A DNA stretch of 55,510 nucleotides from an uncultured Gammaproteobacteria bacterium (GTDB lineage: Bacteria; Patescibacteriota; Microgenomatia; UBA12405), in the NCBI GenBank assembly GCA_964497945.1, contig CAZCFJ010000002.1:1-55510 (forward strand). The letters are read 5' to 3'. The translations under genes and the position numbers were made by a program. How positions within the stretch are numbered: position 1 is the stretch's first letter; each line of letters opens with the position of its first letter. The notes beneath the pieces are model-generated. The model was not told where the DNA came from. It made no database searches and worked only from the letters and a program-made list of their open reading frames with translations. Positions 1,222-11,660 of the stretch are shown one piece after another.

Positions 1222-2061
1222 CTAATTAGTTCTCTTTATTCTTAATAAATAAAGACAATTAATAATTTTGTTAGGCAATAAAGATACGAAAACTTTTTGC
1301 CAAAAAATTATAAACCTATCATTGAAATTTGGCCTCAACATTTTTGATTTAACCGCATCACTTTTTATTCTTAAACTAAGGACAAAAGTGTTTTTAATAT
1401 TTTTTCTAGTCGAGTTTGAATCACTAGTTCTATACTTAACTAATACATCTTTTAATGTATGCATTTTTTTACCCCGGCTAAGATAATGAATCCAAGTATA
1501 GTAATCATTAAAACCTGGATATTTTATTTTATAAAAATCTTTTTCAATCTCTGATTTTCTGAAAAGAATACTAGAATTGACTATTGAATTAGTCAAAAAT
1601 ATTTTTTGCAAAATTAAGTCATAATTCTTACCCAAATCCCAATGACCAATTAATTTTCCTGATTCATCTATTACTTCCGCACTAGAAGAAACCAAAAAAT
1701 AATCGTTATGTTTTTCAAAAAATTTAACTTCTTTTTCAATCCTATCTGGAAAAGCAATATCATCAGCATCCATTCTGGCCACATAAATACCTTTGGCTAT
1801 TCTAATCCCTTGATTTGCAGCAACTTCACCAGTAAAACCAGACGGTTTACTATTTTTTAATACTACAGTATTGTTTTTATATTTTTTAAAATACTTATCA
1901 ATTATCTTTTCCGAACCATCAGTCGAACCATCATTCACAATGATAATTTCTATATTTTTATAAGTCTGATTATATAAACTGTCTAAACATTCACTTAAAT
2001 ATTTCTTTGCATTGTAAACCGGAACCACGATACTAACCAAGGGTTTATTTTTAAAGTTCAT
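1222..2061 (-). CDS. GT2-family glycosyltransferase
   Basis: The N-terminus VSIVVPVYNAKKYLSECLDSLYNQTYKNIEIIIVNDGSTDGS and the MDADD (DxD-like) motif are classic GT-A/GT2 features. Confidence 0.85.
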   Translation of the reverse strand: MNFKNKPLVSIVVPVYNAKKYLSECLDSLYNQTYKNIEIIIVNDGSTDGSEKIIDKYFKKYKNNTVVLKNSKPSGFTGEVAANQGIRIAKGIYVARMDADDIAFPDRIEKEVKFFEKHNDYFLVSSSAEVIDESGKLIGHWDLGKNYDLILQKIFLTNSIVNSSILFRKSEIEKDFYKIKYPGFNDYYTWIHYLSRGKKMHTLKDVLVKYRTSDSNSTRKNIKNTFVLSLRIKSDAVKSKMLRPNFNDRFIIFWQKVFVSLLPNKIINCLYLLRIKRTN

Positions 2062-2064
2062 TTT

Positions 2065-3027
2065 TTAATTTTCATAAAATAATATACTTTTCCATTTCTC
2101 TAATATATTTGTTTTACTTAAAACTAATTTCTTATAAAACAGTTTGTTCTCTTTAACAATCTTTTTTACCAAAGATTTGTTTTCTATCATTGCTTTTATA
2201 GCCCGAGAAAATTCTTCTTCATTACTACAAAATGAGTTTATTTTTGGAATACATTTCATAAATGCAGGATAATTATTAACCACAATAGGTAGCCCACAAC
2301 CCATAGCCTCTGTAAAACACACCGGAGATACATCTAAATTTGACCAATAAACAAAAACATCAGACTCTGACATTTTGTTCAAAACATTTTTTGAGTAACC
2401 ACAAAAACAAAATTTAATATTACCCGGTAATTGAATTTTGGCAGACTGAAGTTTTATTTCATTTAAAAACTTTCCCTCGCCATAAATATTCAAAACCACT
2501 TTTTTTTCTGTTTTTAATGACGAAAGTGCTTTGATTATATGAACCACTCCTAATGCCTTACCTTTAAAAGAAAAATTAGTTACTGTAATTAACTTAATTT
2601 CATTACCTTTCTTGGAATTTTTAGGAATATTTATTTCTTCTGTAAAATTGGGAACTACTATTGATTCAGATATCTTTAATATACTTTTCAAAAAATAATT
2701 TGGAACAATTACTTTATCAGCCCATTTCAAATTAAATTGATATAAATAACCTAAAGGATTCAATATACTTTTTTCTAAATTATAATTCCCATGAATATTT
2801 AAATAATAATCACTTTTTTTAAATCTAAACATAAAAGGTACATTAGTTAAAATTTTTGTATTTTTACTATATATGAAATGAATTAAAATCCATCTCCAAA
2901 AACCAGACCAATGAACAACGCTGTAACCGTCATTTAACAAATATTGGGATAATAAATGATGCTGTTTATAAGGGCCACCAGATCTAGAAGAAAAAATTAT
3001 TAATTTTTTATTTTTTATATTTTCCAT
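2065..3027 (-). CDS. GT4-like glycosyltransferase
   Basis: 320 aa. The C-terminal half contains CFTEAMGCGLPIVV, the E-x7-E region of GT-B enzymes. It overlaps the upstream gene by 13 nt, indicating an operon. Confidence 0.6.
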   Translation of the reverse strand: MENIKNKKLIIFSSRSGGPYKQHHLLSQYLLNDGYSVVHWSGFWRWILIHFIYSKNTKILTNVPFMFRFKKSDYYLNIHGNYNLEKSILNPLGYLYQFNLKWADKVIVPNYFLKSILKISESIVVPNFTEEINIPKNSKKGNEIKLITVTNFSFKGKALGVVHIIKALSSLKTEKKVVLNIYGEGKFLNEIKLQSAKIQLPGNIKFCFCGYSKNVLNKMSESDVFVYWSNLDVSPVCFTEAMGCGLPIVVNNYPAFMKCIPKINSFCSNEEEFSRAIKAMIENKSLVKKIVKENKLFYKKLVLSKTNILEKWKSILFYEN

Positions 3028-4706
3028 ATAGTTACACCATTTTTATCATAAACCTTTTCAAATACCGAGTTAAACTTTTCTAAGTTAACCCCAACATAGT
3101 TATATTCCGACCAATAATCTCTCTCTCCACTCAACTTATTAACTTTGGCAAAAGAATACATTACATAACACTGATGACATTCAGAGATATTATGAATAAT
3201 CATATCTTTTTTGACATTATCGGTATAACAACCACTAAACACATTTCCTTCAAAAAAAATTTTACCCGGATCTAAAAACTTTTTCTGACTGAAATAAGTC
3301 ACCATTGGTTTATTCACTTTTTGTGTCAGTATAGTTGCTCCATCTGGAATATTATTTTTAATCCACTCTGCCACTTTTAATTCTTCTTTGGTCGTCAAAG
3401 ACCCTTTCATTTGGGCTACATAAACCGAGCCCATCATTCCAATCACCACTAAAACTAACCAAATCATTTTTTTTAATTTAACCGACTGAAACAAAAACGG
3501 CATTATTAATAGTACCGACAAATCTATTAATAAAGGAAATCTTTCTGGTAAATATACTACGTTTAATCTAGGAAAAACTTCACAAACCAAAAATAACATT
3601 AAAATCATTAACAACCAATATTTCTGATTTTTCAACTTCTTTAAATTAGTACCTATAAAACTTAAACAAAACACAATTAATGGGCCAAAATAATAACCAT
3701 AATACTTTGCCGCTCCACTCAACCCCGGCCAACCCATCTCTACATTATCCGGAACCGTTTCGTATTTATTCAAAAACCACCATCGCCATTTTTCTATTTT
3801 CCAAATTTCTTCAAAAATTCTATTCACATGCAAATACGACACAAATTTGTCCCTCAAGACGATTACCAACAATAGTCCTATCACCAATAACCAAATCCTT
3901 TTGGATTTTTTCAAATTAAAAAATAATTTTAACCCCAAAATAATTATGGGAAAAATAAAAAATTGATGATAACCAATCGCTACCACAGATATAAATAATG
4001 CCAAATAATTTTTATTCTTCTGTTCTAAATAAAAAATTACTGGGAATAATAACAAACATAAATTTTGTGGTCGAAAAAAATCTATTTCCATATTTATTAC
4101 CGGTACCGCCAGTCCAAAAGACAATAGCAATAATCTTTGCCAAAAATTTTCTATTTTATTTTTATCTATCAATAAACTTATGGCCACCAAATAAACCACC
4201 GACAAAACAATCATCCAAAAAACATGAATTTGATACAAATCAATTTTTGTTACCTGACCCAATATTGTCATGGCCGTAAAAAACAATGGTCTGTAATGAT
4301 TACTAGTCACTCCAGTTTTCATCATTTCACTAATGGTCAATAAATTATCGTAACCATCAGACTCCGGCATAGTTACGTAAAAACGATAAAAGACCAGATG
4401 CAATATGCCGTAAATTACCAAAATTATTATCAACGACCAATCCCACTCAATTTTCGGCCAAGAAAATTTAATTTTATTTTTACTCTTTAATCGCCAAATC
4501 AACAATATGGTTGTCACCAATATTGCTAAGAACCAAAAAAGTCTTGGAGTTACTAATAAGCCAAAATATTTATTTAAAATTAAAATTATCGGCGCTATCC
4601 CTACCCAAAAAAATGTACTTCCCACCAAAAATTTTTCCTTTAAATTCAACTTCAAATCCAACAACCATATCCACAAAAAGGGAATTATGATAAAAATTAA
4701 TATCAT
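3015..4706 (-). CDS. polytopic membrane protein, possible GT-C-type glycosyltransferase or polymerase
   Basis: 563 aa with more than 10 hydrophobic segments followed by a soluble C-terminal domain. It sits in an operon downstream of a polyprenol-P-sugar synthase. No specific motif was recognised. Confidence 0.4.
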   Translation of the reverse strand: MILIFIIIPFLWIWLLDLKLNLKEKFLVGSTFFWVGIAPIILILNKYFGLLVTPRLFWFLAILVTTILLIWRLKSKNKIKFSWPKIEWDWSLIIILVIYGILHLVFYRFYVTMPESDGYDNLLTISEMMKTGVTSNHYRPLFFTAMTILGQVTKIDLYQIHVFWMIVLSVVYLVAISLLIDKNKIENFWQRLLLLSFGLAVPVINMEIDFFRPQNLCLLLFPVIFYLEQKNKNYLALFISVVAIGYHQFFIFPIIILGLKLFFNLKKSKRIWLLVIGLLLVIVLRDKFVSYLHVNRIFEEIWKIEKWRWWFLNKYETVPDNVEMGWPGLSGAAKYYGYYFGPLIVFCLSFIGTNLKKLKNQKYWLLMILMLFLVCEVFPRLNVVYLPERFPLLIDLSVLLIMPFLFQSVKLKKMIWLVLVVIGMMGSVYVAQMKGSLTTKEELKVAEWIKNNIPDGATILTQKVNKPMVTYFSQKKFLDPGKIFFEGNVFSGCYTDNVKKDMIIHNISECHQCYVMYSFAKVNKLSGERDYWSEYNYVGVNLEKFNSVFEKVYDKNGVTIWKI

Positions 4707-6177: not shown

Positions 6178-8440
<2,263 letters not shown>

Positions 8441-8513
8441 AAGCCAATTTTATCCTAAAAATTCTCCAACACAAAGATCCAATATCAAGTATTTAGCTAA
8501 AATTAAAATAAAG

Positions 8514-8522
8514 TGTTACAAT
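8514..8522 (+). promoter_or_regulatory. extended -10 promoter element TGTTACAAT for small-protein cassette 1
   Basis: TGnTAnAAT lies exactly 20 nt upstream of the CTGCGC-TT-GCGCAG palindrome (8543-8556). Cassette 2 has the same geometry. Confidence 0.5.
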
Positions 8523-8542
8523 CCGCGTATTAATTTATTTCC

Positions 8543-8556
8543 CTGCGCTTGCGCAG
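8543..8556 (+). promoter_or_regulatory. perfect palindrome CTGCGC TT GCGCAG (5'-leader hairpin or operator)
   Basis: Seen directly. It is preceded by TATTAATTTATTTCC. The paralogous site at 9170-9186 is preceded by TATAATTTATTTAT. Confidence 0.6.
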
Positions 8557-8618
8557 ATAAAAAATATATTATCGCACCTTTAAATGGATATAAGGATTAT
8601 TGAGAGGAGGACAAATCA

Positions 8619-9059
8619 ATGAATCTCACTGGTTTTACCCTTTGGTTTATCAGCGCTGGAGCCATCACGGTTCTGATTGCACTCTGTCTCGCCCGACTTA
8701 TTCTCTTCATCTACGACTACCCCGATTCCAAACTTAAAGAACTTAAAAACAAAACTATTCCTGCCAAAGTGAACCATCTGGTCGAAAATCTGAAAAAATG
8801 GAATCATATAAACGAATTACCCCCCAACACCATACGAAAAGCCGAAAGTATAAGCTTTTGGTGCACCCCCAAAGCTACAACCGTTTGCACTCAAATAATG
8901 AAACTAATCCCGTCAAAATATACTGACGAAACATGTTTGGAAATACTCCGTGATCTCTGCCTACTCGACAGTCTTCTTGGACAACGCTCAAGAATAGAAA
9001 AACGACTAACTGATAGGCCCTCAGAAGGAAAGTTCATTCAATTATTACGAAAACTATAG
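8619..9059 (+). CDS. hypothetical membrane-anchored protein (one N-terminal TM)
   Basis: 146-aa ORF with a strong SD, GAGGAGG, 8 nt upstream of the ATG. An intrinsic terminator follows it. No family was recognised. Confidence 0.55.
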   Translation: MNLTGFTLWFISAGAITVLIALCLARLILFIYDYPDSKLKELKNKTIPAKVNHLVENLKKWNHINELPPNTIRKAESISFWCTPKATTVCTQIMKLIPSKYTDETCLEILRDLCLLDSLLGQRSRIEKRLTDRPSEGKFIQLLRKL

Positions 9060-9080
9060 TCCTATATCCAACAATCTTAT

Positions 9081-9123
9081 GCCGGCAGGTGATTGCGCAA
9101 GCAATATCTGCCGGTATTTTTTT
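9081..9123 (+). terminator. rho-independent terminator
   Basis: The stem is GCCGGCAG...CTGCCGG with an inner ATTGC/GCAAT helix, followed by TATTTTTTT. Confidence 0.75.
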
Positions 9124-9140
9124 GAAAAAATAAAAATTTA

Positions 9141-9149
9141 TGCTAAAAT
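9141..9149 (+). promoter_or_regulatory. extended -10 promoter element TGCTAAAAT for small-protein cassette 2
   Basis: TGnTAAAAT lies exactly 20 nt upstream of the CTGCG-N7-CGCAG inverted repeat at 9170-9186. Confidence 0.5.
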
Positions 9150-9169
9150 ATATCCTATAATTTATTTAT

Positions 9170-9186
9170 CTGCGACAAAGCCGCAG
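9170..9186 (+). promoter_or_regulatory. inverted repeat CTGCG ACAAAGC CGCAG (5'-leader hairpin or operator)
   Basis: Seen directly. It is a paralogue of the 8543-8556 element. Confidence 0.55.
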
Positions 9187-9261
9187 TTTAAACTATTAAA
9201 TAAATTAAACAAAAAGTTCTTTGACAATCGACGACAATATTTACTCTAATTAGGAGGGGGA

Positions 9262-9465
9262 GTGTCGTACATGAAAAAGTTCATATCGACTCTTTGGTAT
9301 CTTATAGCTGCACTAATGTTTGCTTTTGGAATCATTGGTTTAACCAATGAAGACATCCGACAAATAGTCATTTCAGCCGGAGTCACCCTCTTGTTCGTCG
9401 TCATCATCATTGGTGTAATTTGGTTCTTTGGAGGAATTTTTTCCAAACCAGCCAAATGGAGGTAA
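9262..9465 (+). CDS. small two-TM membrane protein
   Basis: ORF preceded by AGGAGGGGG (9252-9260). The track starts at GTG 9262, and ATG 9271 is an equally plausible start. Both halves are hydrophobic. TLWY and ISAGVTLL echo TLWF and ISAGAITVL in the 8619 protein. Confidence 0.55.
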   Translation: MSYMKKFISTLWYLIAALMFAFGIIGLTNEDIRQIVISAGVTLLFVVIIIGVIWFFGGIFSKPAKWR

Positions 9466-9468
9466 GAA

Positions 9469-9552
9469 ATGGATTTCATTTGGGCACCAATCGCCTTGAT
9501 TGTCGAAATACTTATTTTTTATTTGGCAATGAAGACAGCCAAAGCCAAATAA
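9469..9552 (+). CDS. 27-aa hydrophobic micro-ORF (MDFIWAPIALIVEILIFYLAMKTAKAK), possibly translationally coupled
   Basis: My own translation. GGAGG (9458-9462) lies 6 nt upstream of the ATG and overlaps the stop of the preceding ORF. The micro-ORF ends 8 nt before the terminator. It is below the length cut-off of the ORF track. Confidence 0.35.
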   Translation: MDFIWAPIALIVEILIFYLAMKTAKAK

Positions 9553-9560
9553 ACCAACAA

Positions 9561-9602
9561 CCGGCAGGTAATTGCACGAGCAATATCTGCCGGTTTTTCT
9601 TT
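9561..9602 (+). terminator. rho-independent terminator, paralogue of 9081-9123
   Basis: CCGGCAGGTAATTGCACGAGCAATATCTGCCGG followed by TTTTTCTTT. It differs from the first copy at one internal-loop base and in the apical loop. Confidence 0.75.
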
Positions 9603-9635
9603 ATCACTACTCAACTACTTTACTAATTAGCTAAT

Positions 9636-10934
9636 TTATCTTCCTACAGAAATATATTTAAAGCCCTTTTTCTTCATCTCTTTCGGTTCAAAAATATTTC
9701 TTCCATCAACTATATTTGGTAAATTCATTTTTGATTTTATTTTTTCCAAATCAACTACTTTAAATTCTGGCCATTCTGTCACGATTACCAAACAATCAGT
9801 CTTTTTAACTGATTCTTTCAAATTATCTTCATAAGTCACACTACTACCCAAAACTTTTTCTGCCTGTTTTTTGGCAATTGGATCAAAAACCTTAACAATT
9901 GCCCCTCTGTCCAAAAGTTGTTTAATTATTACCAAGGCTGGAGCCTCACGAACATCATCGGTATGAGGTTTAAAAGCCAATCCCCACAAAGTGATTGTTT
10001 TCCCATGTAAATCATCACCCAATAATCTCTGTATTTTCCCTAAAAGCGATTGTTTTTGGGCATGATTAGTTTCTTCTACTTCTTCCAATATTCCAAATCT
10101 AATTCCATTTTCCTGAGCAATTTGAATTAAACCCTTTACATCTTTAGGAAAGCAACTTCCACCATAACCCACTCCGGCATGCAAAAATGCTTTTTGACCA
10201 ATTCTTTTATCCAACATCATTCCTTGTGATACTTTTTCTACATCAGCTCCCAATTTCTCACATAAATTAGCAATTGAATTGATAAAAGATATTTCTGTCG
10301 CCAAAAAAGAATTAGAAGCATATTTAATCATCTCCGCCGTTTTAATATCGGTCAAAACCATATTTTCCGTCCCAAAATTACTATAAAGTTCACACATTAT
10401 CTTTTCCGCCTTATTTGAAACCGATCCAATCACCACCCTATCCGGATTCATAAAATCAACTATCGCCGTACCTTCCCTTAAAAACTCAGGATTAGAAACA
10501 ACATCAAAATCACCTTTATATTTTTCCGTAATAATCTTGGCTACTACATCACCTGTCCCAATCGGTACAGTTGATTTGTTAACAATCACTTTGTAACCAT
10601 TCATATTCTCTCCAATCGAATCTGCTGCCGACTTTACATACTCCAAATTAACGCTTCCATCTGGCATTGGCGGAGTTCCTACAGCAATAAAAATTATTTC
10701 TGATCCTTTAACTGCAGCCGAAACATCAGTTGTAAAACTTAATCTTTTTTGAGATACATTTTCTTCAACCAATTCTTCCAGTCCCTGTTCATAAATTGGA
10801 ATAATACCCTTGTTTAATCCCTTAATTTTTTCTTTATCAATATCTACCCCCACAACTTCATTTCCCATCTCTGCCAAACAAGTTCCAGTTACTAAACCAA
10901 CATAACCTACACCAATTACAGTTATTTTCTTCAT
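9636..10934 (-). CDS. ugd: UDP-glucose 6-dehydrogenase
   Basis: Contains KITVIGVGYVGLVTGTCLAEMG (NAD fold) and the catalytic GYGGSCFPKDV. Full length at 432 aa. Confidence 0.9.
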   Translation of the reverse strand: MKKITVIGVGYVGLVTGTCLAEMGNEVVGVDIDKEKIKGLNKGIIPIYEQGLEELVEENVSQKRLSFTTDVSAAVKGSEIIFIAVGTPPMPDGSVNLEYVKSAADSIGENMNGYKVIVNKSTVPIGTGDVVAKIITEKYKGDFDVVSNPEFLREGTAIVDFMNPDRVVIGSVSNKAEKIMCELYSNFGTENMVLTDIKTAEMIKYASNSFLATEISFINSIANLCEKLGADVEKVSQGMMLDKRIGQKAFLHAGVGYGGSCFPKDVKGLIQIAQENGIRFGILEEVEETNHAQKQSLLGKIQRLLGDDLHGKTITLWGLAFKPHTDDVREAPALVIIKQLLDRGAIVKVFDPIAKKQAEKVLGSSVTYEDNLKESVKKTDCLVIVTEWPEFKVVDLEKIKSKMNLPNIVDGRNIFEPKEMKKKGFKYISVGR

Positions 10935-10954
10935 ATAGAAGCATTATAATGTCT

Positions 10955-10980
10955 ACTTCACCAAAGTCAAAATAGAAAAT
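10955..10980. repeat. 26-bp direct repeat, left copy (ACTTCACCAAAGTCAAAATAGAAAAT)
   Basis: Identical to 11665-11690. Together the two copies bracket the toxin-antitoxin cassette. Confidence 0.9.
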
Positions 10981-10988
10981 AAACATTA

Positions 10989-11345
10989 ATGATATTCTTA
11001 AAATATATGAACAAATGCGAAATAAATTATTTTATTTCTAAAACCGGAGAAAACCCCATTAAAAACTTTTTAGATAAACACCCAAAGGTTAAAGTAAAAA
11101 CATTTCACATTTTTCTTAATATCGAAAAATACGGTTTAATTTCCGCTATTCCACATATTAAAAAGCTAAAAAATACTCCTCTATGGGAAATTAAAATAGT
11201 TGGTAAAGAAAGCACTAGAATTTTATATTTTTCTGAAAATCAAAATTCAATATTATTACTCCATGCTTTTATTAAGAAAACTCAAAGAACACCAATAAAA
11301 GAAATAAATATTGCTCTTAAAAGATTAAGTCAAGTTAAATATTGA
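10989..11345 (+). CDS. RelE/HigB-type toxin, Gp49-like (DUF891)
   Basis: Contains EINYFISKTGENPIKNFLDK...LWEIKI...TRILYF...ILLLHAFIKKTQRTPIKEI, the typical Gp49/HigB pattern. The toxin gene comes first, followed by an HTH gene. The likely true start is ATG 11007 (MNKCEINY). Confidence 0.7.
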   Translation: MIFLKYMNKCEINYFISKTGENPIKNFLDKHPKVKVKTFHIFLNIEKYGLISAIPHIKKLKNTPLWEIKIVGKESTRILYFSENQNSILLLHAFIKKTQRTPIKEINIALKRLSQVKY

Positions 11346-11375
11346 CTTTTATATCTTAAAAGATATAATTTCACT

Positions 11376-11660
11376 ATGACCAAATATAACTTTCAACAGC
11401 ATCTCCAAGAAAGTCTAAAAGATCCAAAATTCCAAAAAATTTGGCAAGAATCAGAACCAGAATATCAACTATCCTGCAAGCTAATTGAATTGAGGCTAAA
11501 AAACAAAATGTCTCAAATGGAGTTGGCTCAAAAAGCTAATACTACTCAAGCGATAATCTCTAGAATAGAATCAATGTCTGCTAACCCATCTTTTGAAACA
11601 CTTAAAAAAATTAGTGCCGCTTTAAACTGCAATTTAACCGTAAATTTTATTTCTAAATAA
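11376..11660 (+). CDS. XRE-family HTH antitoxin (HigA-like)
   Basis: The HTH core is MSQMELAQKANTTQAIISRIES. 94 aa, immediately downstream of the toxin. Confidence 0.75.
   Translation: MTKYNFQQHLQESLKDPKFQKIWQESEPEYQLSCKLIELRLKNKMSQMELAQKANTTQAIISRIESMSANPSFETLKKISAALNCNLTVNFISK

Follow-up and report, generated by a model that had tools for sequence, protein, structure and literature searches.

The stretch of DNA analysed here (the window) comprises 55,510 nucleotides (nt) of contig CAZCFJ010000002.1. It is AT-rich (about 32% G+C) and belongs to the chromosome of a Candidatus Shapirobacteria strain, a member of the Candidate Phyla Radiation (CPR, Patescibacteria), whose genome was available as 664 kb in 53 contigs. 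In a cell-envelope glycan locus of this window, between the gene of a large membrane protein of 528 amino acids (aa) and that of UDP-glucose dehydrogenase (UGDH), we found an inserted islet which consists of two predicted transcription units of one common design. From sequence comparisons we propose, with a probability of about 0.6, that these units are moron-like cassettes which would be highly expressed, whose cargo genes would be exchangeable and which occupy a strain-variable slot. The two cassettes had been described in an earlier note made from the letters of the sequence, and every element which it listed was found in place (Table 1).

The islet is a strain-variable insertion, and relatives lack it at the corresponding site. 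The syntenic sites of the genus were located using the N-terminus of the 528-aa protein as marker. The site was empty in three genomes of the same genus (G023, G050, and G002), in which UGDH and the next gene adjoin on the same strand; in G023, which this marker places nearest to the window, the UGDH stop codon lies about 9 nt from the start of the next gene. Related cassettes were present at the slot in G004 (two cassettes), in G045 (one) and in contigs L034, L035, L037, L042, and L043–L050. Altogether, cassettes occupied the slot in only three of the 38 genomes of the genus and in four kinds of metagenome or Logan contig, namely the strain represented by L034 and L043–L050 (nine contigs), L035, L037, and L042. 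The strain of L034 is about 90–95% identical to the window in the flanks. Other small genes fill the slot in G053, G020, and G015.

The islet had been described as richer in G+C than its surroundings, and this was borne out, being sharper at third codon positions, where the G+C content (GC3) was 0.40–0.43 in the islet and 0.254 ± 0.038 (maximum 0.33) in 45 host genes. The overall shift was modest (about 0.40 vs. 0.32). The excess at third positions resided in C-ending codons, which accounted for 28–29% of third positions in the islet vs. 15% in host genes. Such codon usage would be expected both under translational selection and for genes of another origin, two causes that the data do not separate.

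The evidence for an exchange of cargo comes from the comparison of leaders and coding regions. From the −10 element to about +45, leaders were 83–92% identical between cassettes whose proteins were only 26–37% identical, the remainder of the leader being 45–63% identical between the same cassettes. In cassette 2, the promoter and first 50 or so transcribed nt were 100% identical to those of L034 and L043, while its coding part (about 9240–9620) was only about 40–50% identical to theirs, against a background of 90–95%. Since such a drop in identity is impossible by point mutation, the cargo of cassette 2 has been replaced, that is, it was swapped between strains behind an identical leader. Regarding cassette 1, its leader and the first 130 nt of its coding sequence were 96–100% identical to L034 and L043. 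Within this cassette, otherwise 90–100% conserved, there is a 100-nt stretch (8750–8849, residues 45–77 of the 146-aa protein) with only about 75% identity to the same contigs, which suggests a patchwork of recombination tracts or a protein surface that evolves fast at this place.

The part of the leader that is kept has a defined structure. The CTGCG/CGCAG palindrome proved to be the inner part of a larger, two-tier hairpin starting at about the predicted +1 and spanning the first 40–50 transcribed nt, with an outer 10-bp A/U stem and an inner 5-bp G/C stem. In the outer stem, TAATTTATTT pairs with AAATAAATTA (AAATATATTA in cassette 1), located 3' of the inner stem. Ten distinct leaders were compared in a hand-made structural alignment, which was checked against the raw sequences by script. 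TGnTAnAAT was present in all ten, at a fixed distance of 7–8 nt from TAATTTATTT. Between the end of the −10 element and the first paired base there are 8 nt, or 7 in some variants, a spacing which predicts a transcription start at or next to the hairpin. In the order as a whole, the promoter-plus-TAATTTATTT pattern matched in four of 132 genomes, compared with one match for the reversed control; of the four, G048 has no hairpin and appears to match by chance.

The inner stem was fully paired (5/5) in the ten variants and included four compensatory pair changes, one in one cassette of G004 (G004A, CTGCA/TGCAG) and three in the other (G004B, TTACT/AGTAA), while the inner loops, of 4–8 nt, were unrelated in sequence. 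The outer stem had on average 9.2 of 10 possible pairs, compared with 2.8–5.2 when the 3' arm was slid by 1–3 nt. Five substitutions in the outer stem (four A-to-G opposite T, the fifth T-to-G opposite T) give G·U pairs on the sense strand and would be C·A mismatches on the antisense. The internal loop on the 3' side varied from 1 to 11 nt, and the distance between the outer inverted arms from 17 to 30 nt. The two-tier fold was the minimum-free-energy fold (ViennaRNA) in six of the eight variants folded, with −6.3 to −9.4 kcal/mol and z-scores from −2.1 to −3.7; that of the cassette 2 leader had −9.3 kcal/mol and z = −3.6, and none of 200 shuffled sequences was as good.

An RNA element is the best interpretation of the conserved palindrome. 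With their variable spacing and G·U changes, the leaders speak for a structure formed by the RNA of the coding strand and against a DNA operator of fixed geometry. The earlier note had left open a shared regulator or an RNA element; of the two, the RNA element is favored, and a shared DNA-binding regulator is unlikely, given arms 17–30 nt apart and sense-only G·U pairs. A broader form of this alternative would have TAATTTATTT, the palindrome and AAATAAATTA as the binding site of a shared regulator (as a DNA operator, the site of an RNA-binding protein or the target of a small RNA), and both cassettes as a small conditional regulon. It agrees with the near-invariance, over the ten variants, of the sequence of the outer arms and not just of their structure, with the presence of the element in both cassettes and with its position from +1 to +45, typical of operators that block promoter escape, and it is compatible with a stabilizing role without excluding it. 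A dimeric DNA-binding protein would not tolerate the variation in outer-arm distance and inner-loop length, all five G·T cells of the alignment preserve RNA pairing on the sense strand only, and no regulator gene was found in any version of the islet. In addition, any regulator would serve only this slot, because neither the genome nor the order contains the motif at any other place. We regard a regulatory site as rather improbable.

Downstream of the hairpin, the cassettes have the strongest Shine-Dalgarno (SD) sites of the window. As had been claimed from the sequence, most neighboring genes lack a strong SD: the median SD duplex energy of the 54 long open reading frames (ORFs) of the window was −0.25 kcal/mol, vs. 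−14.5, −12.9, and −10.7 kcal/mol for the three islet genes, and the only other strong site in the window precedes metK. The islet sites sit in unstructured stretches, and sites of the GGAGG type precede all the cassette genes of the relatives too. The anti-SD motif of the 16S rRNA is probably present in this host, since its loss has been described mainly in a subgroup of Parcubacteria (PMC9297842).

Each cassette ends in an intrinsic terminator, that of cassette 1 having a bulged 14-bp stem, a 4-nt loop, and a U-tract. The two had been reported as nearly identical with differences confined to unpaired positions, and indeed the only differences are located in the loop and at a bulge. The 33-nt terminator pattern matched twice in the window and never in 100 shuffled versions, and these two places were the only ones in the whole genome. 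The ten terminators collected from the variants showed structure-preserving changes. On the minus strand the terminator of cassette 2 has −21.3 kcal/mol and a poorer U-tract, and it may also end the convergent UGDH transcript. A dispersed repeat or miniature inverted-repeat transposable element was considered for the hairpins and rejected, as they were found only at the islet in the genome. A CCGGCAG...CTGCCGG hairpin in G018 was an unrelated terminator between convergent genes. Metagenome matches in L036 and L038, and a match in a Marinobacter record (judged by its title), lacked the hairpin or the context and were read as chance.

Table 1. Location of the islet elements and of the two flanking genes in the window (hairpins, promoters and topologies are predictions).
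Feature	Position	Strand	Remarks
Whole inserted islet	8441..9635	.	About 1.2 kb, bounded by the 528-aa gene start and the UGDH stop
Gene of large membrane protein with multiple transmembrane (TM) segments, 528 aa	6854-8440	-	Left flank of the islet
UDP-glucose dehydrogenase (UGDH)	9636-10934	-	Right flank of the islet
Cassette 1 extended −10, TGTTACAAT	8514..8522	+	No good −35; missed by a −35/−10 scan
Cassette 1 20-nt spacer	8523-8542	+	Ends in TAATTTATTT-CC
Cassette 1 two-tier 5' leader hairpin	8531..8571	+	Outer arms 8531-8540 / 8562-8571, 9/10 pairs
Cassette 1 inner stem, CTGCG-cttg-CGCAG	8543-8547 / 8552-8556	+	Loop CTTG
Cassette 1 SD, GAGGAGG	8604..8610	+	−14.5 kcal/mol, strongest in the window
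146-aa protein ORF	8619..9059	+	N-terminal signal-anchor TM at about residues 5-34; predicted cytoplasmic all-helical domain
Cassette 1 intrinsic terminator	9082..9123	+	Hairpin 9082-9114 and T-run; −25.8 kcal/mol, z = −5.6
Cassette 2 promoter	9122..9149	+	TTGAAA (9122-9127), 16 nt, TG-n-TAAAAT; 10/12 matches, with TG; kept in L034 and L035
Cassette 2 extended −10, TGCTAAAAT	9141-9149	+
Cassette 2 20-nt spacer	Directly 3' of the −10	+	Ends in TAATTTATTT-AT
Cassette 2 two-tier 5' leader hairpin	9158..9207	+	Outer arms 9158-9167 / 9198-9207, 10/10 pairs
Cassette 2 inner stem, CTGCG-acaaagc-CGCAG	9170-9174 / 9182-9186	+	Loop ACAAAGC
Cassette 2 SD, AGGAGGGGG	9252..9260	+	−12.9 kcal/mol
64-aa two-TM hairpin protein	9271..9465	+	N-in/C-in; starts at ATG 9271, not at GTG 9262
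27-aa ORF SD, GGAGG	9458-9462	+	−10.7 kcal/mol
27-aa single-TM peptide	9469..9552	+	Translationally coupled; upstream stop 3 nt before its ATG
Cassette 2 intrinsic terminator	9561..9602	+	Hairpin 9561-9593 and T-run; −23.6 kcal/mol, z = −6.9

The cargo genes are coding and under purifying selection. For the gene of cassette 1 compared with L034, the synonymous divergence (dS) was 0.29 and the nonsynonymous (dN) 0.074 (omega = 0.25), compared with an omega of 0.029 for UGDH, and intact copies of the cargo were found in nine Logan contigs. The coding regions are thus real, a lack of ORF conservation having been named beforehand as the result that would speak for non-coding RNAs. The architecture of the ORFs is also kept. 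Homologous two-TM alleles of 60 aa (L035) and 59 aa (L034), starting MKR and MSE, respectively, correspond to the 64-aa protein, and 28-aa counterparts of the 27-aa peptide were found in both contigs, with a conserved Glu, an I-F motif, and a Lys-rich tail in DNA otherwise about 40–50% identical. The three alleles share a two-TM protein of 59–64 aa, then an overlapping or abutting single-TM peptide of 27–28 aa with a mid-membrane Glu and a Lys-rich tail, so that the 27-aa peptide, which had been proposed as possible, is a conserved ORF in very divergent alleles. The other cassettes encode an N-terminally anchored protein of 110–161 aa, either alone or before a single-TM peptide of 42 or 47 aa.

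According to the positive-inside rule, the helical domains of the anchored proteins would be cytoplasmic (N-out/C-in for the 146-aa protein), and the two-TM proteins would be N-in/C-in hairpins. The AlphaFold model of the 146-aa protein was all-helical, with a mean predicted local distance difference test (pLDDT) of 49.7, too low for a fold search. Only two relatives of this protein, P0002 (85% identity) and P0006 (37%), were found among 5.8 billion and 1.84 billion proteins, and the 64-aa protein likewise had only two relatives in very large protein searches. The three window proteins, together with seven cargo proteins of relatives, were compared with Pfam, NCBIfam, PHROGs, and PADLOC, and nothing came up at E < 0.007, the weak matches being noise from hydrophobic segments, and Rfam gave only chance-level matches for positions 7500–11000 (E ≤ 10). 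A likeness of the 146-aa protein to the Fas death domain in a PDB sequence search was non-significant (E = 0.43) and was not used.

The two proteins of the window had been taken for paralogs, but no such relationship was detectable (BLASTP E = 1.8 over 7 residues), and only the regulatory shells of the cassettes are related. The strings TLWF/TLWY and ISAGAITVL/ISAGVTLL, listed in the note as shared, are present in the two proteins; they are not significant, with the E-value just given, and are not conserved in the homologs. Our best guess, of low confidence and drawn by analogy, is that the cargo may consist of accessory factors at the membrane or envelope which diversify under selection, e.g., against phages or at the interface with a host, much as the small membrane proteins of phage morons do.

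A further likeness was observed for the family of the 146-aa protein, in which residues 30–130 (8706–9008) align to residues 110–213 of the eukaryote-like choline/ethanolamine kinases P0008 and P0009. The hmmsearch E-values were 1e-7 and 4e-4 among 1.84 billion proteins, and hhalign gave 80% probability and 32% identity over 101 columns. The aligned part of the kinases is the hinge and the first helices of the C-lobe, with the catalytic motifs outside the alignment. The family and both kinases have in common the motif RK-x-ES-x-S-x-x-CTP, and the Pfam kinase model itself gave no match.

Taking these results together, the cassettes may work as follows. The extended −10 promoter would start the transcript at about +1 of the two-tier hairpin, which would shield the 5' end from 5'-end-dependent decay by analogy with the 5'-terminal stem-loops of Escherichia coli and Bacillus subtilis, and this hairpin together with the strong ribosome-binding site would stabilize the message. 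The very strong SD would recruit ribosomes in a genome whose genes mostly lack one, as seen in the SD statistics. At the other end, the bulged hairpin of about 14 bp and its U-tract would terminate the transcript, and the same hairpin may protect the 3' end. The exchange of cargo, the replacement itself being visible in the alignments, would occur by homologous recombination in the conserved leader on one side and in the terminator and UGDH on the other. Finally, the cargo proteins would act at the membrane, presumably under diversifying pressure.

It must be noted that several observations weigh against this explanation. The C-rich third positions could reflect a foreign origin instead of high expression. 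The leader hairpins are weak (−6 to −9 kcal/mol), and the minimum-free-energy fold of cassette 1 has the inner stem only (−7 kcal/mol, z = −2.3), its outer stem having become apparent when the other variants were compared. Few independent lineages contribute to the covariation, as both inner stems other than CTGCG are in G004, and the putative 5'-terminal position of the hairpin is deduced only from its spacing of 7–8 nt after the −10 element. As for selection on the leader, the low divergence of the cassette 1 leader with respect to L034 runs into the first 130 nt of the coding sequence, and it may be due to a recent recombination tract. Lastly, nothing ties the cargo to phages: matches were found neither in PHROG, PADLOC, Pfam, and NCBIfam nor in the phage and viral collections.

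Other explanations concern the role of the cargo or of the hairpins. The small peptides (27–47 aa, with a single TM segment and a charged tail) might be toxins of type I or holin-like, with the larger membrane protein as partner or antidote, so that the cassettes would be addictive or abortive-infection modules. Five cassettes do contain a single-TM peptide (of 27, 28, 28, 42, and 47 aa) that is coupled to a membrane protein encoded 5' of it; the leaders have a structure and probably persist for long, the cassettes occur patchily, and a HigB/HigA-like pair adjoins at 10989–11660. But the promoter looks constitutive and strong and the SDs are the strongest ones and unsequestered, the opposite of what is found in silenced type I toxins; moreover, the search gave no antisense promoter or Rfam RNA and no PADLOC or toxin-family match, and the cassettes of G045, G004A, and cassette 1 of the window have no such peptide. 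This makes a toxic function unlikely. We consider slightly less likely still that the cargo proteins serve the adjoining glycan machinery (the large protein, probably of GT-C type, a GT2 enzyme, a DUF2304 protein, and UGDH) as accessory subunits or as specificity factors. The islet always lies between UGDH and the gene of the large membrane protein, which is itself hypervariable (35% vs. 87% protein identity), and some envelope enzymes are modulated by small membrane peptides, as LpxT is by PmrR. Against such a role, the cassettes are missing from most members of the genus in which both flanking genes are present, the C-terminal domains would be cytoplasmic according to prediction and thus away from the periplasmic active site of a GT-C enzyme, and the alleles of cargo and large protein assort independently: L043 combines the window's allele of the 528-aa protein (87%) with L034's cassette 2 cargo, which in L034 accompanies the 35% allele.

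The conserved hairpins could also be conceived as recombination sites of a site-specific cassette system, similar to integrons or to the staphylococcal cassette chromosome (SCC), and not as expression signals, inasmuch as they are imperfect, contain unpaired bases and bound a cargo that varies by strain. We consider this very improbable, given that there is no integrase or recombinase within 8 kb on either side and no attC-like core, that the elements occur at this one slot only, and that each 3' hairpin has a U-tract behind it and the 5' element stands at fixed spacing after a promoter. In addition, the replacement tracts reach into flanking sequence, as homologous recombination predicts. The moron-like organization described above is, in our opinion, the best of these explanations.

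The definition of phage morons (a concept of Juhala and Hendrix) and the membrane protein gp15 of phage HK97 are described by Cumby et al. (2012; PMC3594210). At sequence level, the cassettes share four of the five defining features, i.e., their own promoter, their own factor-independent terminator, a site between genes which adjoin in relatives, and a composition that deviates, and their cargo includes small inner-membrane proteins like HK97 gp15. The fifth feature, location in a phage or prophage, is absent: the neighbors are glycan genes, the HigBA-like pair, and metK, with no phage gene among them, and searches of phage and viral collections, viral contigs, and phage records gave no match to the cassettes, nor was there any PHROG match. 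Because the four features are present and the phage location is not, the cassettes work like morons but are not morons. They also differ in their host, a CPR bacterium whose native genes lack SDs, and in having different cargos under one conserved shell of leader and terminator. To our knowledge, morons do not share a single conserved leader and terminator among different cargos. With respect to superinfection-exclusion membrane proteins (of the HK97 gp15 or Sie2009 type), PHROG, PADLOC, and Pfam gave no match at E < 0.01 for ten cargo proteins.

A 5' hairpin or ribosome-binding site is known to stabilize mRNAs, as in ompA and papA of E. coli, aprE of B. subtilis, and the STAB-SD (PMC3997798). 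The cassettes have the same pair of elements as aprE and cryIIIA-type mRNAs, i.e., a predicted hairpin at or within 1–2 nt of the 5' end and then a leader with a very strong SD; they differ in their two-tier stem (A/U and G/C), with outer arms of near-invariant sequence, and their stabilizing effect is putative. Integron gene cassettes are a poorer model, since the 33-nt hairpin lacks the R''/L''-L'/R' cores (GTTRRRY), no recombinase was found among the neighbors, and these cassettes carry their own promoters. Nor do they fit the logic of type I toxin-antitoxin systems. Single-TM peptides of 27–47 aa, putative toxins under this reading, are present, but the antisense RNA and the restrained translation are not: neither an antisense promoter nor an Rfam RNA was found, and the SDs are the strongest in the window.

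Replacement-type flexible genomic islands are known from surface-glycan loci, and Gtr-like operons for O-antigen modification carry a variable GT-C gene. The locus resembles them in that the 528-aa gene has an allele of 35% identity between strains about 90% identical in the flanks, with the islet in the same variable region. It differs in that the islet genes are not glycan enzymes and that the assignment of the neighbor to GT-C comes from weak fold matches (STT3, ArnT) of a low-confidence model.

This neighboring 528-aa protein is hypervariable. The body of its gene was 40–60% identical in DNA, and 35% in protein, to the allele of L034 (positions 1921–3495 of that contig), with flanks at 90–95%, and L043 (570–2135) has an 87% allele; the N-terminal 45 or so codons (DNA from about 8300) stay conserved. 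This looks like the allele replacement of a surface-glycan enzyme. No match was found for the protein in Pfam or NCBIfam. Its AlphaFold model (pLDDT 47) has about 13 helices and a C-terminal alpha/beta domain, and the top seven Foldseek matches of this low-confidence model were all STT3 or ArnT (E = 0.014–0.2; TM-score 0.33–0.40), weak fold matches by which the protein may be of GT-C type. Because of the apparent allele replacement and of these best fold matches, the islet would lie in a variable surface-glycan region.

Some traits of the surroundings should also be mentioned. On the minus strand at 8440–8457, the 528-aa gene has a TAAAAT hexamer whose end lies 6 nt upstream of its ATG, which suggests a leaderless mRNA. 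At the empty site of G023 (junction in L019), there is a similar TAAAAT which shares bases with the UGDH stop codon and directly precedes the ATG of that same gene. A 22-nt direct repeat (8366–8387 and 9537–9558, 20 of 22 nt identical) brackets most of the islet, with the left copy in the N-terminal codons of the 528-aa gene, where it includes the reverse complement of TAATTTATTT, and the right copy at the end of the 27-aa ORF. It was considered as an insertion scar and dropped, as it is not conserved in L034 and is probably due to chance. The HigBA-like pair, made up of Gp49 (HigB-like) and HTH_3 (HigA-like) genes, lies directly beyond UGDH and is conserved in L034 and G023. The cassette-bearing contig of G045 (L039, CAYRYK010000006.1) belongs to a CPR bacterium of the same genus, and its public record, entitled "uncultured Gammaproteobacteria bacterium," is probably a mislabeled metagenome-assembled genome.

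The slot of G020 follows the same design with other sequences. In G020 (L024, 915–1810) and G015 (L026, 380–1090) it carries three small non-membrane proteins of 60–91 aa, whose genes are preceded by TGTTATAAT, a 5' hairpin (CCAAGGT-aacagc-ACCTTGG) and AGGAGG, and at the end there is a terminator, CCGGCAGG...CCTGCCGG. What this locus adds is a 5' leader structure backed by covariation, a mapped replacement of cargo behind an identical leader, and the same slot design with different sequences in distant members of the genus.

The CPR or Patescibacteria make up a large share of bacterial diversity and live attached to other cells, and their control of gene expression and the variation of their surfaces are barely known. 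In this regard, the locus shows that core genes and accessory cassettes of one genome are sharply split, the former having no ribosome-binding site and the latter one of maximal strength. Its conserved structured mRNA leader is a candidate element of stability or control which could be reused as an expression tool for CPR organisms, and the strain-level swap of small membrane proteins beside a hypervariable glycan enzyme is the kind of variation expected at a phage or host interface. As a more tentative idea, which we hold to be possible rather than probable, the shell might be a dedicated expression slot of CPR bacteria, offering accessory genes a second, SD-dependent translation regime, in cells where core genes would be translated with neither SD nor leader, and using its invariant leader and terminator as homology arms for shuffling a pool of small membrane-protein cargo. 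If so, it would be a recombination-based exchange of cassettes without recombinase or mobile element, which could be widespread in Patescibacteria, and if the shell is a general slot for expression and exchange, its regulatory signature could serve to find fast-evolving accessory genes of these bacteria without recourse to homology.

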